Made by a program: the position numbers and the translations under genes
Source: a virus
Virus record (IMG/VR): IMGVR_UViG_3300045988_046657
Length of the DNA: 30,882 nt
Direction: 5' to 3' (one strand)
Notes under the pieces: generated by a model
What the model was told of the DNA's origin: nothing
The model's database searches: none
Seen by the model: only the letters and a program-made list of their open reading frames with translations
Shown here: positions 20,050-26,361 of the stretch, piece by piece
How positions within the stretch are numbered: position 1 is the first letter of the stretch
Layout of the letters: every line of letters starts with the position of its first letter

Positions 20050-20631
20050 CTATTCCTCTGTTTGAGAGGATGCATCCTCTCCGGTGTCCGATTCTTGAGT
20101 GCTGATATCTTGATACTGCTCCATAATGGTATCTATTTGACTGTGGTATTCCTCGGCTTGATCAGGGGTCAAATCATATTCAATACGAAAAATAGCTTTA
20201 TCATATTTATACATGTATTGATCTAATGCAAGTATTCCCAATGACGAATCCTGCAATGTTTTGAGATATTTATACCGATTGTTACAATCGGACTCATTTT
20301 CAAAAGTCTCTATCGTTCCACCAACAAGATACTCACCGTATTGTTCTAATCGGGTATCTTCAAAATCTGCTTTGCTGATATATTCTCCCGGGCGACCGAG
20401 ATTTCCGTTCGGATCTGTAGATTCGTCAAATGCCTCTATTCCTCCCACATTTGAATTTATCGCCTTAATCTGTTCTGCAAGACTTTGAGAATCTGGAAGA
20501 TCTTCATATACCGGTTCGGTTTCTTCATTGACTCCCCGTTCTCCATTTGACGCGCCTTCAGATTCGCCGCAAGCTGTAGCTGACACGGCTAGCATACATG
20601 CTAACATAATGACAGCGATTTTCTTTTTCAT
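20050..20631 (-). CDS. secreted acidic lipoprotein in the int–repressor interval (candidate superinfection-exclusion / lysogenic-conversion protein)
   Basis: MKKKIAVIMLACMLAVSATAC is a signal peptide with a lipobox Cys; the mature protein is highly acidic; its position matches Ltp/Sie-type genes. Confidence 0.6.
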   Translation of the reverse strand: MKKKIAVIMLACMLAVSATACGESEGASNGERGVNEETEPVYEDLPDSQSLAEQIKAINSNVGGIEAFDESTDPNGNLGRPGEYISKADFEDTRLEQYGEYLVGGTIETFENESDCNNRYKYLKTLQDSSLGILALDQYMYKYDKAIFRIEYDLTPDQAEEYHSQIDTIMEQYQDISTQESDTGEDASSQTEE

Positions 20632-20704
20632 AGCTTTTCCCTCTCTTTCTTTTGTCCCCTGTTCCTTTAACACCACTTTATATAATCGCCGTAGCGGTTA
20701 TACC

Positions 20705-20926
20705 TTATTTATGCGCAGACATTTCGATTTTCTGTACATCTATTTTCTCAAAATCACGCTCCTTTATATGCCTAATCGCATGGTTAATTGCCTTTAACCG
20801 TTTGCTTTCACATAAATTTGCGTTTATAAAAATAGTGAATGAATTATCTTCATTCTCGGTTATTACTTCATTAACGGTCATTCCGTCCATGAAAAAAATT
20901 TGATAATCAAGACTCATTATTATCAC
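20705..20926 (-). CDS. hypothetical small protein co-transcribed with the repressor
   Basis: 73-aa ORF overlapping the repressor 3' end by 20 nt. Confidence 0.4.
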   Translation of the reverse strand: MIIMSLDYQIFFMDGMTVNEVITENEDNSFTIFINANLCESKRLKAINHAIRHIKERDFEKIDVQKIEMSAHK

Positions 20927-21285
20927 GTTCCTTTTTCTTTAATGCCATAAGCATGTCATATGTTGTTTTCAAATCTTCCGGAGTAGCATCTTTTGCAGCA
21001 TCGAATAAGACACGCAAATCTTTGTTTTCAAATAGTTTTTGTGCCATCTCAGCGGTTTCTTCGTTTAAATAGTACTTCTCACCGCCTTCCTTTTCTTCGC
21101 CAGTACGAATATACTCTACTGATACTCCAAACAAGTCAGCAATTTTTTTGTAGTTTTGCATCTTTGGGGTTGCTTCTTCCATTCTTCCAGTCGGAGAAAG
21201 TTGACTTGGTAATCCCAGTTTCCCTTGCAACGTCAGCGTCTTTCATGCCTTTGGCATCTCTTAACTTGCAATAAATTTCATACAT
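20907..21285 (-). pseudogene. cI-like XRE-family HTH repressor interrupted by a 1-nt frameshift in a C4/G4 homopolymer
   Basis: From ATG 21285..21283 the N-terminal frame reads MYEIYCKLRDAKGMKDADVARETGITKSTFSDWKNGRSNPK and terminates shortly after; the downstream frame continues ...PKMQNYKKIADLFGVSVEYIRTG... to 20907. Removing one C at 21166..21169 (minus-strand CCCC) restores a single ORF whose HTH aligns residue-for-residue with the Cro paralogue. Confidence 0.6.
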
Positions 21286-21326
21286 AATACACCTCACAAA
21301 AAAATTCTGAAATCAGTACAAAAGCT

Positions 21327-21355
21327 ATTGACAAGTTCTGATATCCGCACTATAA
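21327..21355 (+). promoter_or_regulatory. consensus early promoter (TTGACA, 17-bp spacer, TATAAT) driving cro rightward
   Basis: TTGACA at 21327..21332 and TATAAT at 21350..21355. Confidence 0.6.
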
Positions 21356-21434
21356 TAAAGCTACAAAGTTCGGAAATCAAAACAGAATTGTAACTTAATT
21401 CTTTGTCAATGTATCTGGTAAATATATTGTATCT

Positions 21435-21470
21435 GATTTCCGAACTAAAATCAATAGGAAAGTTCGGAAA
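21435..21470. promoter_or_regulatory. operator-like inverted repeat ATTTCCGAACT-N14-AGTTCGGAAAT, with a third direct copy at 21366..21376
   Basis: Three copies of the 11-mer AGTTCGGAAAT lie between the divergent repressor and cro genes; one pair is inverted and overlaps the cro RBS. Confidence 0.4.
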
Positions 21471-21485
21471 TGAGGTGATTATTTA

Positions 21486-21671: not shown

Positions 21672-21742
21672 TGTAACAGGAAAGGTGTTCGATAAACATG
21701 ACTTTGAAGCAGAAGAGGAGGTGAAGGTAATAATGAGAATAA

Positions 21743-21865
21743 AAATAATTTTTCACATAACAAGGATGGACGATGTTAGTGATGTTTTGAAGAAAGCAGA
21801 AGAATTAAAGAAAGAGCACCCCCATACAGAAATTAGTATAGAGGTTCTAATATAGAAAGATTATT
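21743..21865 (+). CDS. hypothetical 40-aa ORF
   Basis: Strong RBS GAGGAGGTGAAGG; shorter than the ORF-track cutoff. Confidence 0.3.
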
Positions 21866-22082
21866 TCTTTCTGATTTCGATGGCTTTTAATCCAGTTGTA
21901 GAAATTGTGTAACTTGTACTAGAACTATACAGGTAAATCTCTGAGTGAATCCTAAAATGCTGAGATGCAATTTCATCGCCCGAATATGTTCTTATTCCGG
22001 ATGAAGTAGGAATTTCGATTTTATCTACATTCGTGCACAAGTGATCATTTCCATCGAAATATGAAAAATAAACATCATACAT
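21861..22082 (-). CDS. antisense small protein A (paralogue of 22406..22651)
   Basis: N-terminal MYDVYFSYFDGNDHLCTNV is similar to MMQNYYFYIYPDINGNYEVHTENC of gene B; conserved 5' leader with RBS AAAAGGAGAG. Confidence 0.45.
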   Translation of the reverse strand: MYDVYFSYFDGNDHLCTNVDKIEIPTSSGIRTYSGDEIASQHFRIHSEIYLYSSSTSYTISTTGLKAIEIRKK

Positions 22083-22224
22083 ATAGTATCTCTCCTTTTC
22101 ATAATACTCGGCATGGCAGTGCCTGTATTAACAGTATAGGAGAGGTGGAGGAGAATAGCAAGTAGCATGCAGATCAGCTGTCAATAAAACGGACAGAAGA
22201 GAAAGGAGAGTGATTAAGTTGGCT

Positions 22225-22386
22225 ATGGAGATGCTTGATAGAGAATTCCGAGAAGACCAGAGCGCGATATTAAGCAATGAGATTTCGCGGTGTATGATTC
22301 AGAACAATATGACATTGGAGAATCTGGACGAGGCGTGCGAGATTGTACGTGAGGTGTTTAGAAAGAACGCCACAATGAAAGGCTGA
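22225..22386 (+). CDS. hypothetical 54-aa ORF
   Basis: RBS AGGAGAG; may start at the in-frame TTG at 22219. Confidence 0.25.
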   Translation: MEMLDREFREDQSAILSNEISRCMIQNNMTLENLDEACEIVREVFRKNATMKG

Positions 22387-22405
22387 CGAAAAGCCAGCCC
22401 CATTA

Positions 22406-22651
22406 TTATCCCTTGTGGCATTCACGGCAACAATGATAACATCCGTCAAACTTTTTATCGGGATAAGCAATCTGCGCAGCAATTATAGCTGCCTGACAAG
22501 AACTGTATCTTCCAATATACTGTCTGTTAAGTTCGGATGGAAGATAATAGCAGTTTTCTGTATGTACTTCATAATTGCCGTTAATATCTGGATAGATATA
22601 AAAATAGTAATTTTGCATCATGATGGAACTCCTTTCGTAGTACTCGGACAT
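22406..22651 (-). CDS. antisense small Cys/aromatic-rich protein B (C-terminal CYHCCRECH zinc-knuckle-like)
   Basis: 81 aa; conserved 5' leader shared with gene A; RBS AAAGGAG. Confidence 0.5.
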   Translation of the reverse strand: MSEYYERSSIMMQNYYFYIYPDINGNYEVHTENCYYLPSELNRQYIGRYSSCQAAIIAAQIAYPDKKFDGCYHCCRECHKG

Positions 22652-22742
22652 GCCAGTGTCCTGTATTTACAGTACAGGGGATTTCATTGGACAACGCAAC
22701 AAGTACAAACAGTGTTTCATAAGCTTTAGAGAGGTGGTGTAA

Positions 22743-22880
22743 ATGATCATAAAAAGCATTGTAGTAATTGACGGAAAAGAAGTAGAGGTTAAGGAACTGG
22801 AAGATAAAGAGGCATTTGCAGAAAGTGTTAACCAAAGGGTTCTTTTTGACAGAAACTACATAATAGAGAAAACCGCGTAA
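22743..22880 (+). CDS. hypothetical 45-aa ORF
   Basis: RBS AGAGGTGGTG; shorter than the ORF-track cutoff. Confidence 0.3.
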   Translation: MIIKSIVVIDGKEVEVKELEDKEAFAESVNQRVLFDRNYIIEKTA

Positions 22881-22902
22881 GCGGTAGAAAGGAAGGACAA
22901 GC

Positions 22903-23121
22903 ATGGAAGAGATTAAATTACCGACAGTGCCGGAGCTGGAGCTGATCCCGATCGAGCGGAGAAATTTTCCGGAAGAGGATCACAAGCAGGAGAAAATTCA
23001 GCACAAAAGAAAAGAAAGAGACAGCGCTGCAAGAGGTCTGATCGCAGTAACGGTTGCCAGCATGATGTTAAACGCGGTGATGGCTATGATCATTTACATC
23101 TTGCAGGCAGGACCAATCTAA
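22903..23121 (+). CDS. small C-terminally membrane-anchored protein
   Basis: C-terminal TM helix GLIAVTVASMMLNAVMAMIIYIL; its 3' end is the start of direct repeat A. Confidence 0.4.
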   Translation: MEEIKLPTVPELELIPIERRNFPEEDHKQEKIQHKRKERDSAARGLIAVTVASMMLNAVMAMIIYILQAGPI

Positions 23122-23392
23122 GGAGGTGAACAAAGAAATGGATGTAAAGGTAAAGAAAGATGCCGAAGAAGAAATGAACTGCATCTTAGATCTACTTGAA
23201 GAATGGTGTCTGAAATACGATCAGGATTATGCAAACGCGGTTGTACTTGTAAAACATGATCAGATCACATCGTGGGGAAGTATAGGCAATCACGAAGATT
23301 TTGACGTTTACAGAACAAAAGAGCGCCCATAAATGAGGCGGCAACCTCTAGGACGCATAGATAAATAATCAACATTATTGTAACAGAAAGGA
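23063..23392. repeat. direct repeat copy A (about 330 bp) carrying the 68-aa gene and a conserved downstream leader
   Basis: About 88 percent identical to 24286..24617 by eye. Confidence 0.85.
23126..23332 (+). CDS. 68-aa hypothetical protein (paralogue 1)
   Basis: MNKEMDVKVKKDAEEEMNCILDLLEEWCLKYDQDY...; RBS AAGGAGGTGAAC. Confidence 0.5.
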   Translation: MNKEMDVKVKKDAEEEMNCILDLLEEWCLKYDQDYANAVVLVKHDQITSWGSIGNHEDFDVYRTKERP

Positions 23393-23400
23393 CGAGAAAA

Positions 23401-24270
23401 GTGAAGAAATTTGAATTAACAAATGAATTTGTAACAAATATGTTCGGGACAAAGCTGTTCCGCATCCGTGCCCTTGTTGAGTTCGGCGATGTGGAAGCCG
23501 GAGAACTTGGCGGGTATGTGGAGAAGGAATCAAACCTTGGTCATGACGACAATGCGTGGGTGTACGACAATGCGCGGGTGTACGGCAATGCGTGGGTTTC
23601 CGGCAATGCACAGGTTTCCGGCAATGCGCGGGTGTACGGCAATGCGTGGGTGTACGGAGATGCACAGGTTTCCGGCAATGCGCGGGTGTACGACAATGCG
23701 CGGGTGTACGGCAATGCGCGGGTGTACGGAGATGCGCTGGTGTACGACAATGCGCGGGTGTACGGCAATGCGTGGGTGTACGGAGATGCACAGGTTTCCG
23801 GCGATGCGCGGGTTTCCGGCAATGCGCGGGTGTACGGCAATGCGCGGGTGTACGGAGATGCACAGGTTTCCGGTGATGCGCGGGTGTACGACAATGCGCG
23901 GGTGTGCGGCAATGCGCTGGTGCGCGGCAATGCGTGGGTGTACGGCAATGCGTGGGTGTACGGAGATGCACAGGTTTCCGGCGATGCGCGGGTTTCCGGC
24001 AATGCGCGGGTGTACGGCAATGGGGACTATGCATACGCTCACGGTTTCGGATCTGTCAACCGTACAACGACCTTCTTCCGTCTCAAAGATGGCGGCGTGG
24101 GTGTGCGGTGCGGATGCTTCTACGGGACGCTTGCACAGTTCCGGGATAAGATCCGGGAGACACACGGAGAAACAAAGAAGGCACAAGAATACCTGATGCT
24201 GGCAGACCTGATGGAACTCAGATTCGAAGAGGATGAAAACGAAGTAGGAAATAGAAAATACGTTGAGTAA
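23401..24270 (+). CDS. tandem hexapeptide-repeat protein (predicted left-handed beta-helix), 26 perfect N/D-A-x-V-Y/S-G/D repeats between unique N- and C-terminal domains
   Basis: GTG start with RBS AAAGGACGAG; the + frame is the only one with non-repetitive termini and operon context; the repeat block is open in all six frames. Confidence 0.6.
   Translation: MKKFELTNEFVTNMFGTKLFRIRALVEFGDVEAGELGGYVEKESNLGHDDNAWVYDNARVYGNAWVSGNAQVSGNARVYGNAWVYGDAQVSGNARVYDNARVYGNARVYGDALVYDNARVYGNAWVYGDAQVSGDARVSGNARVYGNARVYGDAQVSGDARVYDNARVCGNALVRGNAWVYGNAWVYGDAQVSGDARVSGNARVYGNGDYAYAHGFGSVNRTTTFFRLKDGGVGVRCGCFYGTLAQFRDKIRETHGETKKAQEYLMLADLMELRFEEDENEVGNRKYVE
23551..24018 (+). repeat. 26 near-identical tandem 18-bp repeats (consensus AATGCGCGGGTGTACGGC)
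   Basis: Directly visible; encodes NARVYG and variants (NAWVYG, DAQVSG, DARVSG, NALVRG ...). Confidence 0.95.
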
Positions 24271-24285
24271 TGAAAGAAGATAGTG

Positions 24286-24617
24286 TGATGTTAAATGCGG
24301 TGATGGCTGTGATTATTTACATCCTGCAGGCAGGACCGATCTAAGGAGGTGAACAAAGAAATGAACGAAGAAATAAAGAAAGACGCCGAAGAAGAAATGA
24401 ACTGCATCTTAGAACTGCTCGAAGGATGGTGCCTGAAATACGATCAGGATTATACAAACGCAGTTGTACTTACAAAAAACGATCAGATCACATCGTGGGG
24501 AAGCATAGGCAATCGCGAAGACTTTGACGTTTACAGAACAAAAAAGCGCCCATAAGAGGCGGCAACCTCTAGGACGCATAGATAAACAACCAAGATTATT
24601 GTACGGGAAAGAAAGGA
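24286..24617. repeat. direct repeat copy B (about 330 bp), including a truncated remnant of the membrane-protein 3' end (MLNAVMAVIIYILQAGPI)
   Basis: Alignment with 23063..23392. Confidence 0.85.
24349..24555 (+). CDS. 68-aa hypothetical protein (paralogue 2)
   Basis: MNKEMNEEIKKDAEEEMNCILELLEGWCLKYDQDY...; about 80 percent identical to paralogue 1. Confidence 0.5.
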   Translation: MNKEMNEEIKKDAEEEMNCILELLEGWCLKYDQDYTNAVVLTKNDQITSWGSIGNREDFDVYRTKKRP

Positions 24618-24627
24618 ATTTGTAAAG

Positions 24628-24873
24628 ATGATTAAATGCAGTAAAGGCAATGTGGAAATAAAAGGAAATTTAATATTATTAGAAGCAGAAACAGTCATGA
24701 TATTAAGAGGAATAAGAAACATCCTCGAAGAAGAGTACGGAAAAAAACACGCAGAAAAGTCAATGCAAAAAATAGTTAAAACATCCACAATGACGCAAGA
24801 AGAAATAGAAGAGGAAATAAAAAAATCAGCACAAGAAATAGCGAGAGAAGCAGCGAAACACCTCATGAAATGA
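24628..24873 (+). CDS. hypothetical 81-aa Lys/Glu-rich protein (second cassette cargo)
   Basis: Follows repeat-B leader; RBS GAAAGGAA. Confidence 0.4.
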   Translation: MIKCSKGNVEIKGNLILLEAETVMILRGIRNILEEEYGKKHAEKSMQKIVKTSTMTQEEIEEEIKKSAQEIAREAAKHLMK

Positions 24874-25172: not shown

Positions 25173-25934
25173 ATGGCAACACGGAGAAAAACGTACAAAT
25201 TACGGGGCGGAGACGTCTACGACGTAGAGGAATATCCAGACGGAAGATATGGAGCAAAAGGAAAGGCACGGCAAAAGAAAAAGAAACCGACGCCGGAACA
25301 GATGGCGGCAGTCAACCAAGCCAACCGAGCGAAGATATGCAGACGATTACTGATCGAATATTTTGATGCAGGAGACTACTTTGTAACATACACCTACAAA
25401 GTCGAGCAAAGACCGAAAGACATGACAGTGGCACTAAAAGACTTACAAAAAGCACTCCGAAAGCTCCGTCCGAAATATAAAAAGGCAAACACTCCGTTTT
25501 ACTGGATCAGAAACATAGAGCGGGGCACAAAGGGTGCATGGCACATCCATCTAGTCATTAAAAAAACATCAGGGGCGGCAGAATGGATCGAAGATGCATG
25601 GGAACACGGAGCAATCTATATTACGCAGATCAAAAAAAGCCGGTTTTACGATGAGGATTTTACAAAACTGGCAAACTATATGACAAAAAACGAAAAAACA
25701 AGAGAAAAACGATCGGACGGAAGCAAAGGAAAACCGCGACTAAAAGAAGCAAGCTACAACCATGCGAAAAATATGCCGTTACCCGAACCGAAATCCCAAA
25801 AACTTGTACGCTGGCAAAAAGAAGTAAAACCCAAAAAAGGCTATTACATCGCAAACAGTTACGAGGGGATCAACCCGGCTACGGGGATGAGATACCGCAG
25901 ATACACACTGATCAGAATCCACAGGAGGATTTAA
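25173..25934 (+). CDS. rep: HUH-superfamily rolling-circle replication initiator (Rep)
   Basis: Motif I FVTYTYK, motif II (HUH) AWHIHLVIKK and motif III YMTKNEK (Y-x-x-K), in canonical order and spacing; very basic N-terminus. Confidence 0.6.
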   Translation: MATRRKTYKLRGGDVYDVEEYPDGRYGAKGKARQKKKKPTPEQMAAVNQANRAKICRRLLIEYFDAGDYFVTYTYKVEQRPKDMTVALKDLQKALRKLRPKYKKANTPFYWIRNIERGTKGAWHIHLVIKKTSGAAEWIEDAWEHGAIYITQIKKSRFYDEDFTKLANYMTKNEKTREKRSDGSKGKPRLKEASYNHAKNMPLPEPKSQKLVRWQKEVKPKKGYYIANSYEGINPATGMRYRRYTLIRIHRRI

Positions 25935-25935
25935 A

Positions 25936-26361
25936 ATGAAAACAGTAAATATCTACATAGAAACCACCATAAAATCCCCCATTGTAAAAGATGGGAAATA
26001 CGCATCCGCCCTAGTATTTACTAGGTCAAACGGAGAAGAAGCATACCGGGTCATGAGTGGCGAAGAGTGCGAATCTACTTACAACAGATTGACGCTGATC
26101 GCAATCATAAAATCATTACAAAAATTAAAAGAGCAGTGTCATGTTGTAATTCACACTGATAACGCTTATATCAAAAATATTTCAGAACAAGGAGCGCCGG
26201 AGAAGTGGCGGCGATCCGAGTGGAAAAAAGCCACAGGCGCGGAAGTCCAAAATAAAGAATTATGGAAAATGTACCTTGAGGAAGCGGAGAAACACGAAAC
26301 GGAATTTCGCTTTTGCGCCAGCAATGATTATCAGGGATTGCTAAGAGAAGAACTAACATAA
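25936..26361 (+). CDS. RNase H-like protein with non-canonical active-site residues
   Basis: Aligns by eye along its length with E. coli RNase HI (VNIYIETT/VEIFTDGS; STYNRLTLIAIIKSL/TTNNRMELMAAIVAL; HTDNAYI/STDSQYV; WRRSEWKK/WKKRGWK); D10 is Glu and E48 is Thr. Confidence 0.55.
   Translation: MKTVNIYIETTIKSPIVKDGKYASALVFTRSNGEEAYRVMSGEECESTYNRLTLIAIIKSLQKLKEQCHVVIHTDNAYIKNISEQGAPEKWRRSEWKKATGAEVQNKELWKMYLEEAEKHETEFRFCASNDYQGLLREELT

Follow-up and report, generated by a model that had tools for sequence, protein, structure and literature searches.

The DNA analysed here, referred to as the window, is the whole of a 30,882-nucleotide viral stretch (IMG/VR record IMGVR_UViG_3300045988_046657), and our subject is a repeated leader element that precedes two small genes in it, A and B. 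Both genes sit on the minus strand among the plus-strand genes of a rightward early operon, and the moron-like antisense placement described for them in an initial annotation of this DNA is supported. Gene A (21861..22082, minus strand) encodes 73 amino acids (aa) and is a conserved ORFan: it matches nothing in Pfam, PHROG or PADLOC, and its 32 homologue clusters reach down to 64% identity and show a protein-like substitution pattern. Gene B (22406..22621, minus strand) encodes a Cys/His-rich protein of 71 aa with 13 homologue clusters, which matches phrog_4298 (function not assigned in PHROG) over its full length. Both proteins are conserved and narrowly distributed.

The initial annotation placed both genes on the minus strand, and its coordinates for A and its end of B at 22406 stand. 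The start of B moves from 22651 to 22621, because the ATG at 22651 falls within the conserved hairpin of the leader, a GGAG (22632..22629) is correctly spaced for the ATG at 22621, and the homologues of B are 70–71 aa long; these homologues and phrog_4298 match full length from 22621. The proposal that A and B are paralogues fails, with a BLASTP hit of E = 0.019 that covers 13 residues from non-corresponding regions, and a probability of 0.1% in profile-profile comparison by hhalign. Kinship of gene B with a 75-aa protein, MRRCNSPFNG, encoded downstream of the element elsewhere, was suspected from the Cys/His pattern and dropped, as BLASTP gives no alignment.

The two genes do share a leader. 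It is a repeat of ~57 nucleotides (nt) on the minus strand, found at 22138..22084 before gene A and at 22676..22620 before gene B; its 15-nt core (TACTGTWAATACAGG) occurs exactly twice in the window with 0 mismatches, and its 26-nt second half was found 0 times in 100 shuffles, in agreement with the shared leader that was first described. A covariance model trained on 96 family members scores leader A at 57.3 bits and leader B at 54.6 bits, values that arise partly by construction, as both window copies are included in the training set. Since the copies sat in the training alignment, the informative outcome of the scan is the absence of a third copy from the window, where the next-best match scores 15.6 bits. 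A search of the whole window against Rfam 15 returned no family at the gathering threshold, and a permissive Rfam search (E up to 10, 21700..22900) gave two chance matches, to a microRNA and a small nucleolar RNA, neither of them on the leaders.

Predicted promoter and covarying hairpin in the leader

Anchored on the hairpin, the family consensus reads TTG(nnn) - 17 nt - cTCC-TATAcT - 5 variable nt - TACAGG - N - CACTGCCATG - N' - CC - GAGTA, and then 5–8 nt, aAGAAAGGAG, 5–9 nt and the start codon; the Shine-Dalgarno segment of the family is GAAAGGAG, with the same 5–9 nt to the start codon. In instances anchored on the hairpin alone, TTG and TATAcT stand at fixed distances with near-maximal information content. 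TATAMT is conserved family-wide with CTCC directly before it, and 93 of the 96 aligned sequences keep one distance between this -10 box and the hairpin, which lies 10–11 nt downstream of the box and has no U-tract. A promoter scanner run on leader A reports TTGCTA-17-TATACT. To judge by these features, the 5' part of the element is a sigma-70-type promoter of canonical spacing, and transcription should begin ~7 nt past the -10 box, on the first A of ACAGG, which would give a 5' untranslated region (5'UTR) of 42–46 nt.

In leader A, on the minus strand, the -35-like hexamer TTGCTA (22156..22161), whose TTG is nearly invariant in the alignments, lies 17 nt upstream of the -10 box TATACT (22133..22138). 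The transcription start predicted from sigma-70 promoter geometry is at 22126, the first A of ACAGG, and the RNA hairpin GGCA-CUGCCA-UGCC (22110..22123) is a 4-base-pair (bp) variant with one pair fewer. It is followed by a conserved, single-stranded GAGUA box (22105..22109) and by the Shine-Dalgarno GGAG (22092..22095), which is part of AAAAGGAGA. Leader B, also on the minus strand, has the -35-like hexamer TTGCGT (22694..22699) 17 nt upstream of the -10 position, a -10 box TGTACT (22671..22676; in place of TATACT), a start predicted from the same geometry at 22664, the hairpin GGACA-CUGGCA-UGUCC (22646..22661), recognised by covariation and by the covariance model, a conserved GAGUA box (22641..22645) and a Shine-Dalgarno GGAG (22629..22632) that serves the ATG at 22621. 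Among near-identical contigs, 13 read TATACT at the -10 box of leader B and 8 read TGTACT, like the window. GAGTAY was also considered as a further -10 box and as a sigma-dependent pause element; both readings were set aside, as conservation ends with GAGTA and position 6 is T in ~40% of sequences.

Two hairpins had been proposed in each leader. The first, CUGU/ACAG, does not withstand the comparison: its 5' arm is not conserved, no compensatory change is seen, and its G-C pair is broken in 56 of the 96 sequences. It would pair the end of the -10 box with the predicted start-site region, and in leader A the -10 box coincides with the region of its 5' arm. In leader B the G of TGTACT also makes a perfect CCUGUA/UACAGG pairing, which lent this hairpin its plausibility. 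Nor is CTGT-N4-ACAG a LexA-like or repressor box, as CTGT is not conserved and the window operators are AGTTCGGAAATCA.

The second hairpin (22123..22110 in A, 22661..22646 in B) is real and strongly covarying. Across the 96 distinct aligned sequences (helix columns 17–22 and 27–32), 82.8% of cells are paired, against 62% in shuffles, and the covariation score is 0.609, against 0.172 when shuffled; none of 500 shuffles reached the observed value, and controls in which the partner arm was slid gave at most 0.12. The helix is made up of two fixed G-C pairs, three free covarying pairs and a closing C.A or U.G pair. The three free pairs show 31, 53 and 44 double-sided changes, with all four Watson-Crick types at each. 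In leader A the stem lacks one base on either side, a paired deletion that is found in two lineages.

The first search patterns fixed the loop, and the search was then repeated with the 12 interior bases left free. Among the matches listed, this yielded 61 distinct hairpins from 219 instances, such as CAUC-UGCC-AAUG, CUAU-UGCC-GUAG, CUCC-CGCC-AGAG and GUGU-UGAU-ACAC. In the 61 hairpins from these listed matches, the four variable pairs comprise 213 Watson-Crick, 24 G.U, 4 A.C and 3 other combinations, and the six-fold excess of G.U over A.C means that the fold lies on the gene-sense strand, that is, in the messenger RNA (mRNA). The innermost position is C.A (48) or U.G (9), and the loop stays near CUGCCA even when unconstrained, at 66–85% per position, again among the matches listed. 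A possible lower stem, UAC/GUA, is invariant and hence uninformative; the next pair outward is paired in 52% of cases, against 37% in shuffles (p ~0.001, uncorrected for phylogeny), which is weak evidence for a position that lies upstream of the predicted start.

Three resemblances were considered and dropped. The potential for a kissing interaction of loop A (UGCCA) with loop B (UGGCA) appears to be a coincidence, as other multi-copy phages repeat one loop throughout. The likeness of AGUACGAAAG to the sarcin-ricin loop involves positions that vary across the family, and the likeness of GAGTATTAC, present in some leaders, to the nonanucleotide of circovirus and nanovirus Rep involves a TTAC that is not conserved family-wide.

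The initial annotation had named, as the finding that would undo its claim, a duplicated promoter without structural constraint. One half of that description holds, the 5' part of the repeat having the sequence of a promoter; the other half does not, as the second hairpin is structurally constrained. A shared cis element with a constrained hairpin is supported.

Distribution, exchange and genomic context

The element is not specific to genes A and B: in Lachnospiraceae phages, at least 115 unrelated clusters of genes have it in front of them. A 20-base core pattern has matches in 69 IMG/VR contigs, and looser patterns, each relaxing different parts, have many more. A scan of species-representative genomes found 68 loci, 66 of them from Lachnospiraceae records or on contigs carrying the full element, in genera that include Acetatifactor, Dorea, Blautia, Hungatella, Roseburia and Anaerostipes, with up to 7 leader copies on one contig. 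The genome matches outside Lachnospiraceae (L199 and L233), together with one site in L210, have neither promoter nor Shine-Dalgarno sequence and are ascribed to chance.

In all, 458 instances were collected from 333 fetched viral and Lachnospiraceae genome loci. The genes downstream, here called cargo, encode 249 distinct proteins (median length 79 aa), which fall into 115 unrelated clusters, and are mostly ORFans, only ~10 of 72 cluster representatives having a Pfam match. The recognised cargo comprises two Abi_alpha families (also PADLOC PDC-S47), DUF2513, DUF2321, KTSC, DUF6173 and zinc ribbons, and no core phage function is found among the family-matching proteins of these 72 representatives in Pfam. 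In the cultured phage phiRg507T2_2 of Ruminococcus gnavus, the element lies upstream of gp27, an antisense gene of 51 aa; the paper describing this phage does not mention promoters. As far as a limited literature search shows, the element is undescribed in the literature, and likewise in Rfam. Arrays of 4–7 leaders occur in L178/L198 (one Acetatifactor contig), L185, L206 and L224, where the copies are 450–900 bp apart on a single strand, each with a different small open reading frame (ORF) after it; in L178, L198 and L206, ~40 nt upstream of the -35 hexamer are repeated as well.

Comparison of related phages shows what happens at the leader. Where phages carry the element at the same locus, the homology between them is confined to about -90 to +46 relative to the -10 box, and five different cargo genes follow. 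The contig L025 corresponds to the window minus 22627..22141, and it aligns to the window in two parts whose overlap is exactly the 51-nt leader, so that gene B and the plus-strand gene at 22210..22386 were lost, or gained, by recombination between leader copies. In L083, an A-type promoter flank is joined to the hairpin of B and to gene B. The near-identity of the module between copies and between phages makes the leader a patch of homology, at which phages acquire, lose and exchange cassettes.

The gene order of this part of the window leads from an integrase and a repressor on the minus strand, through a TTGACA-17-TATAAT promoter with operators, to cro and small early genes on the plus strand. 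Between the two cassettes lies one of these early genes (22210..22386, plus strand; 58 aa), with homologues of 48–56% identity in other loci. The interleaved plus-strand ORFs as a group have homologues at 48–76% identity elsewhere, and this divergence indicates that they are real genes. The cassette shares a strand with the repressor and integrase genes and runs antisense to those on the cro side in each of the four contexts examined, namely the window, L006/L035, L198 and phiRg507T2_2; in the array locus L185 its orientation relative to early genes was not assignable. The copies lie on one strand in all 106 multi-copy loci. Of 265 unique cargo genes, 71 have a terminator-like hairpin behind them; shuffled tails yield 7 such hairpins and the opposite strand 6. 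In the window, such hairpins are found downstream of gene A (21818..21845, minus strand), with a T-rich tail, and downstream of gene B (22373..22399, minus strand), where GGCUGGC-UUUUC-GUCAGCC is followed by UUUCAUUG.

Several other features of the window may be recorded here. The immunity switch region (21328..21474) contains the perfect TTGACA-17-TATAAT promoter (21328..21356, plus strand) and three copies of AGTTCGGAAATCA or its complement (at 21367, 21434 and 21461), which are likely repressor/Cro operators and are unrelated in sequence to the leader. The cI-like repressor region (20907..21297, minus strand) is apparently split, an HTH_3 ORF (21136..21297) overlapping an ORF at 20907..21230 in a different frame, and may reflect a frameshift, a pseudogene or a sequencing error. 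Between integrase and repressor, a classical place for a lysogenic-conversion or exclusion gene, 20050..20676 (minus strand) encodes a 208-aa protein with a lipoprotein-type signal (MKKKIAVIMLACMLAVSATAC) and a weak PHROG match; it carries no leader element. Further along, a gene at 23401..24270 (plus strand) consists of ~23 tandem 18-nt units and matches the YdcK beta-solenoid repeats and bactofilin of Pfam. A direct duplication (23063..23416 and 24286..24637; 270 nt at 90% identity and 82 nt at 78%) yields paralogous 68-aa genes (23126..23332 and 24349..24555) that flank this solenoid gene. The replication module (25173..26361, plus strand) consists of an HUH rolling-circle-type Rep (REP_ORF2-G2P) and then RNase H.

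Possible roles of the element

We consider it probable that the element is a portable expression cassette, composed of a promoter and a 5'UTR, which temperate Lachnospiraceae phages place before unrelated small accessory genes. A host sigma-A-type promoter (TTGnnn, 17 nt, TATAMT) would drive each cassette, the transcript would start at the first A of ACAGG, and the 5'-terminal hairpin would begin at about +4, ~3 nt from the 5' end. In the lysogen, where the early operon is repressed, host RNA polymerase would transcribe the cassettes; the hairpin would shield the mRNA at its 5' end, give that end a standard form and perhaps also bind a conserved factor, and an unstructured A-rich leader with a strong Shine-Dalgarno sequence would allow efficient translation. 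Once the prophage is induced, the cassettes would be shut off by convergent transcription of the early operon; phage 80alpha, with its noncontiguous operon, offers a precedent for this (PMC11087260). The part of this scheme that makes the hairpin a 5' stabiliser is put forward tentatively, as a plausible role that may well prove wrong.

Several points weigh against the scheme. Promoter activity, the position of the start site and expression in the lysogen are all predicted from sequence. The search patterns fixed parts of the element, and conservation of the flanks is therefore partly ascertained; TACAGG was left free in some pattern searches, including the genome scan, and the hairpin interior was free in another. 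The shuffle control for covariation ignores phylogeny; the slid-partner control keeps relatedness and is clearly negative. Taken singly, the leaders fold with an energy no better than that of shuffles (z = -1.07 and +0.85), and the case for the hairpin accordingly rests on comparative data. The G at the critical -11 position of leader B may make that copy a weak promoter, and a strict terminator is present in only 27% of cargo tails. Lastly, a pure stabiliser would need neither the conserved CUGCCA loop nor the ACAGG and GAGUA flanks, and their presence suggests sequence-specific recognition.

Such recognition is what one would expect if the hairpin were an mRNA operator, bound by an RNA-binding protein of phage or host or by a small RNA, through which the cassettes would be controlled jointly as a moron regulon. 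This is compatible with the promoter cassette and differs from the stabiliser solely in the role it gives the hairpin. A conserved loop and flanks around a stem of free sequence are typical of protein-recognised hairpins, the position relative to the predicted start site is fixed, and many copies per prophage have the same loop. However, no candidate binder was found, no recognisable RNA-binding domain occurs among the window's early genes, the loop is not complementary to the downstream leader, and loop position 4 (C or G) varies freely, even inside one phage. We regard an mRNA operator as possible, if somewhat doubtful. That the loop and flanks are the site of a dedicated trans-acting factor, be it a phage or Lachnospiraceae RNA-binding protein or a single-stranded DNA recombinase, we think unlikely; if it were true, a prophage would have all its accessory cassettes regulated, or mobilised, as a single set, and gut Firmicutes phages would possess a previously unrecognised system of accessory and defence cassettes, integron-like in function and based on a promoter and leader.

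The dimeric protein site, or operator, that the initial annotation had also offered would make the palindrome a DNA operator near +11, where a repressor could block RNA polymerase at each cassette promoter. Its fixed distance from the -10 box is a classical operator position, and its outer flanks (TAC.GG and CC..GTA) are roughly symmetric. Against this, the three inner pairs stay complementary through many changes, which a DNA-binding protein does not need, and the stems differ among copies in 80 of the 106 multi-copy loci, which speaks against recognition of the stem sequence by a dimeric DNA-binding protein. Moreover, the 24 G.U against 4 A.C pairs among the matches listed are a strand bias expected of RNA and not of duplex DNA, and the repressor/Cro operators of the window have a different sequence, AGTTCGGAAATCA. 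A DNA operator is thus very unlikely. We find it just as hard to believe that the hairpin is a single-stranded DNA recombination site for cassette capture or excision, like an integron attC or the target of an HUH transposase, even though each cassette has one structured site, structure is conserved beyond sequence with the copies on one strand, the element is the exact place of cassette gain, loss and swapping, and the phage encodes an HUH Rep with homologues in 101 of the 333 loci. The element always lies 5' of the gene, with a -10 box on one side and a Shine-Dalgarno sequence on the other, and the spacing is fixed. Its junctions fit homologous exchange anywhere in a block of ~140 nt and reveal no single fixed cleavage point, the crossover being upstream of the hairpin in L083 and downstream in L025; no integron integrase is evident, and a GTTRRRY core is absent from the sequence. 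Least probable of all is that the leader RNA acts in processive antitermination, as do the nut site of lambda (boxA/boxB) and the put site of HK022. With its 5-bp hairpin close to the promoter, its conserved loop and the conserved linear box alongside, the leader does recall boxB and boxA, and terminator-bearing arrays of cassettes could be read through by such means, but a promoter for each cassette makes read-through unnecessary, no N-, Q- or NusG-like gene was recognised among the window genes tested against Pfam and PHROGs, and there is neither a boxA-like sequence nor an Rfam match.

The element is a sequence-searchable flag for prophage accessory genes in an abundant family of gut bacteria. 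A pattern of 20–40 nt retrieves hundreds of small ORFans, among them at least two families of abortive-infection proteins, and mining by leader could be used to find candidate defence, anti-defence and lysogenic-conversion genes. The hairpin is also a well-supported RNA motif with abundant covariation that is absent from Rfam, and its function is directly testable in culturable hosts, for instance upstream of gp27 in Ruminococcus gnavus ATCC 29149 / phiRg507T2_2. Should the module prove to be a strong and constitutive signal for expression, it could serve as a part for genetic engineering of Lachnospiraceae.

Relation to known regulatory and mobile elements

Two further systems invite comparison. 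The hairpin has the size of the boxB of lambda nut, where boxA and boxB act with the N protein, but no boxA-like sequence is present and no N- or Q-like protein was found by Pfam and PHROGs among the genes tested. Integron attC sites lie 3' of a promoterless cassette ORF, carry RYYYAAC / GTTRRRY cores and occur beside IntI, whereas the element lies 5' of its gene, lacks the GTTRRRY core, and shares its window with an integrase that is a large serine recombinase. Firmicutes also have 5'-terminal stem-loops that stabilise mRNAs, as in aprE, ermC and the leader of phage SP82, and are not known to need more than structure. These have in common with the element a hairpin a few nucleotides from the mRNA 5' end (here a predicted end), followed by an accessible, strong Shine-Dalgarno sequence, and differ from it in that the element also conserves the sequence of loop and flanks.

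Morons are reportedly autonomous promoter-gene-terminator units in prophages, as recognised by Juhala, Hendrix and colleagues (see also PMC7067206). The cassettes resemble them as single accessory genes between phage genes, each with a predicted promoter of its own and in many cases a predicted terminator as well, oriented with the lysogeny genes and including an abortive-infection protein among their cargo. Morons are usually unrelated single insertions, each with its own signals, whereas here one standard leader with a covarying hairpin serves more than 100 cargo families across a bacterial family.

The SAS/ESAS of Cluster K mycobacteriophages consist of a 13-bp SAS and of 17-bp inverted repeats with a 4–13 bp spacer, and their proposed role is to bind a factor of host or phage (PMC3203893). 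They, too, are conserved repeats placed just before the start codons of some of the genes, unrelated to one another, with the ribosome-binding site included, and about half of the SAS sites adjoin an imperfect inverted repeat. They differ from the element in sequence, host phylum and architecture, having no associated promoter, and SAS genes run in the main direction of transcription. In phage 80alpha, the gene ith is nested within the cI-tha operon, with mutually exclusive lysogenic and lytic expression (PMC11087260). The gene layout seen here has a similar nesting of antisense genes in an operon, with the polarity reversed, in that lysogeny-strand genes are nested inside the lytic operon; furthermore, the nested unit here is a standard, repeated and exchangeable cassette.

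The closest known system is the promoter-early stem-loop (PeSL) of T4-type phages, described as a mobile regulatory cassette (Arbiol et al. 2010, PMC2839356; Comeau et al. 2014, PMC4122927). The element behaves like a PeSL and is not one. The PeSL stem-loop lies upstream of the promoter and is the terminator of the preceding gene, whereas the present hairpin lies downstream of the -10 box in the predicted 5'UTR, has no U-tract, and conserves its loop and flanks. PeSLs belong to virulent myoviruses of Gram-negative hosts and run in the same direction as their neighbours; the element belongs to temperate Lachnospiraceae phages and is antisense in the early operon in every context examined. Both are nonetheless repeated units with a sigma-70-type promoter (17-nt spacing; here predicted from sequence), a stem-loop of variable sequence, a Shine-Dalgarno sequence and a start codon. 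In both, variable ORFans follow, often in uninterrupted arrays, and insertions, deletions and replacements map to the elements through recombination, as L025 and L083 illustrate here. The idea of the mobile regulatory cassette thereby extends from virulent T4-type phages to temperate phages of Firmicutes.

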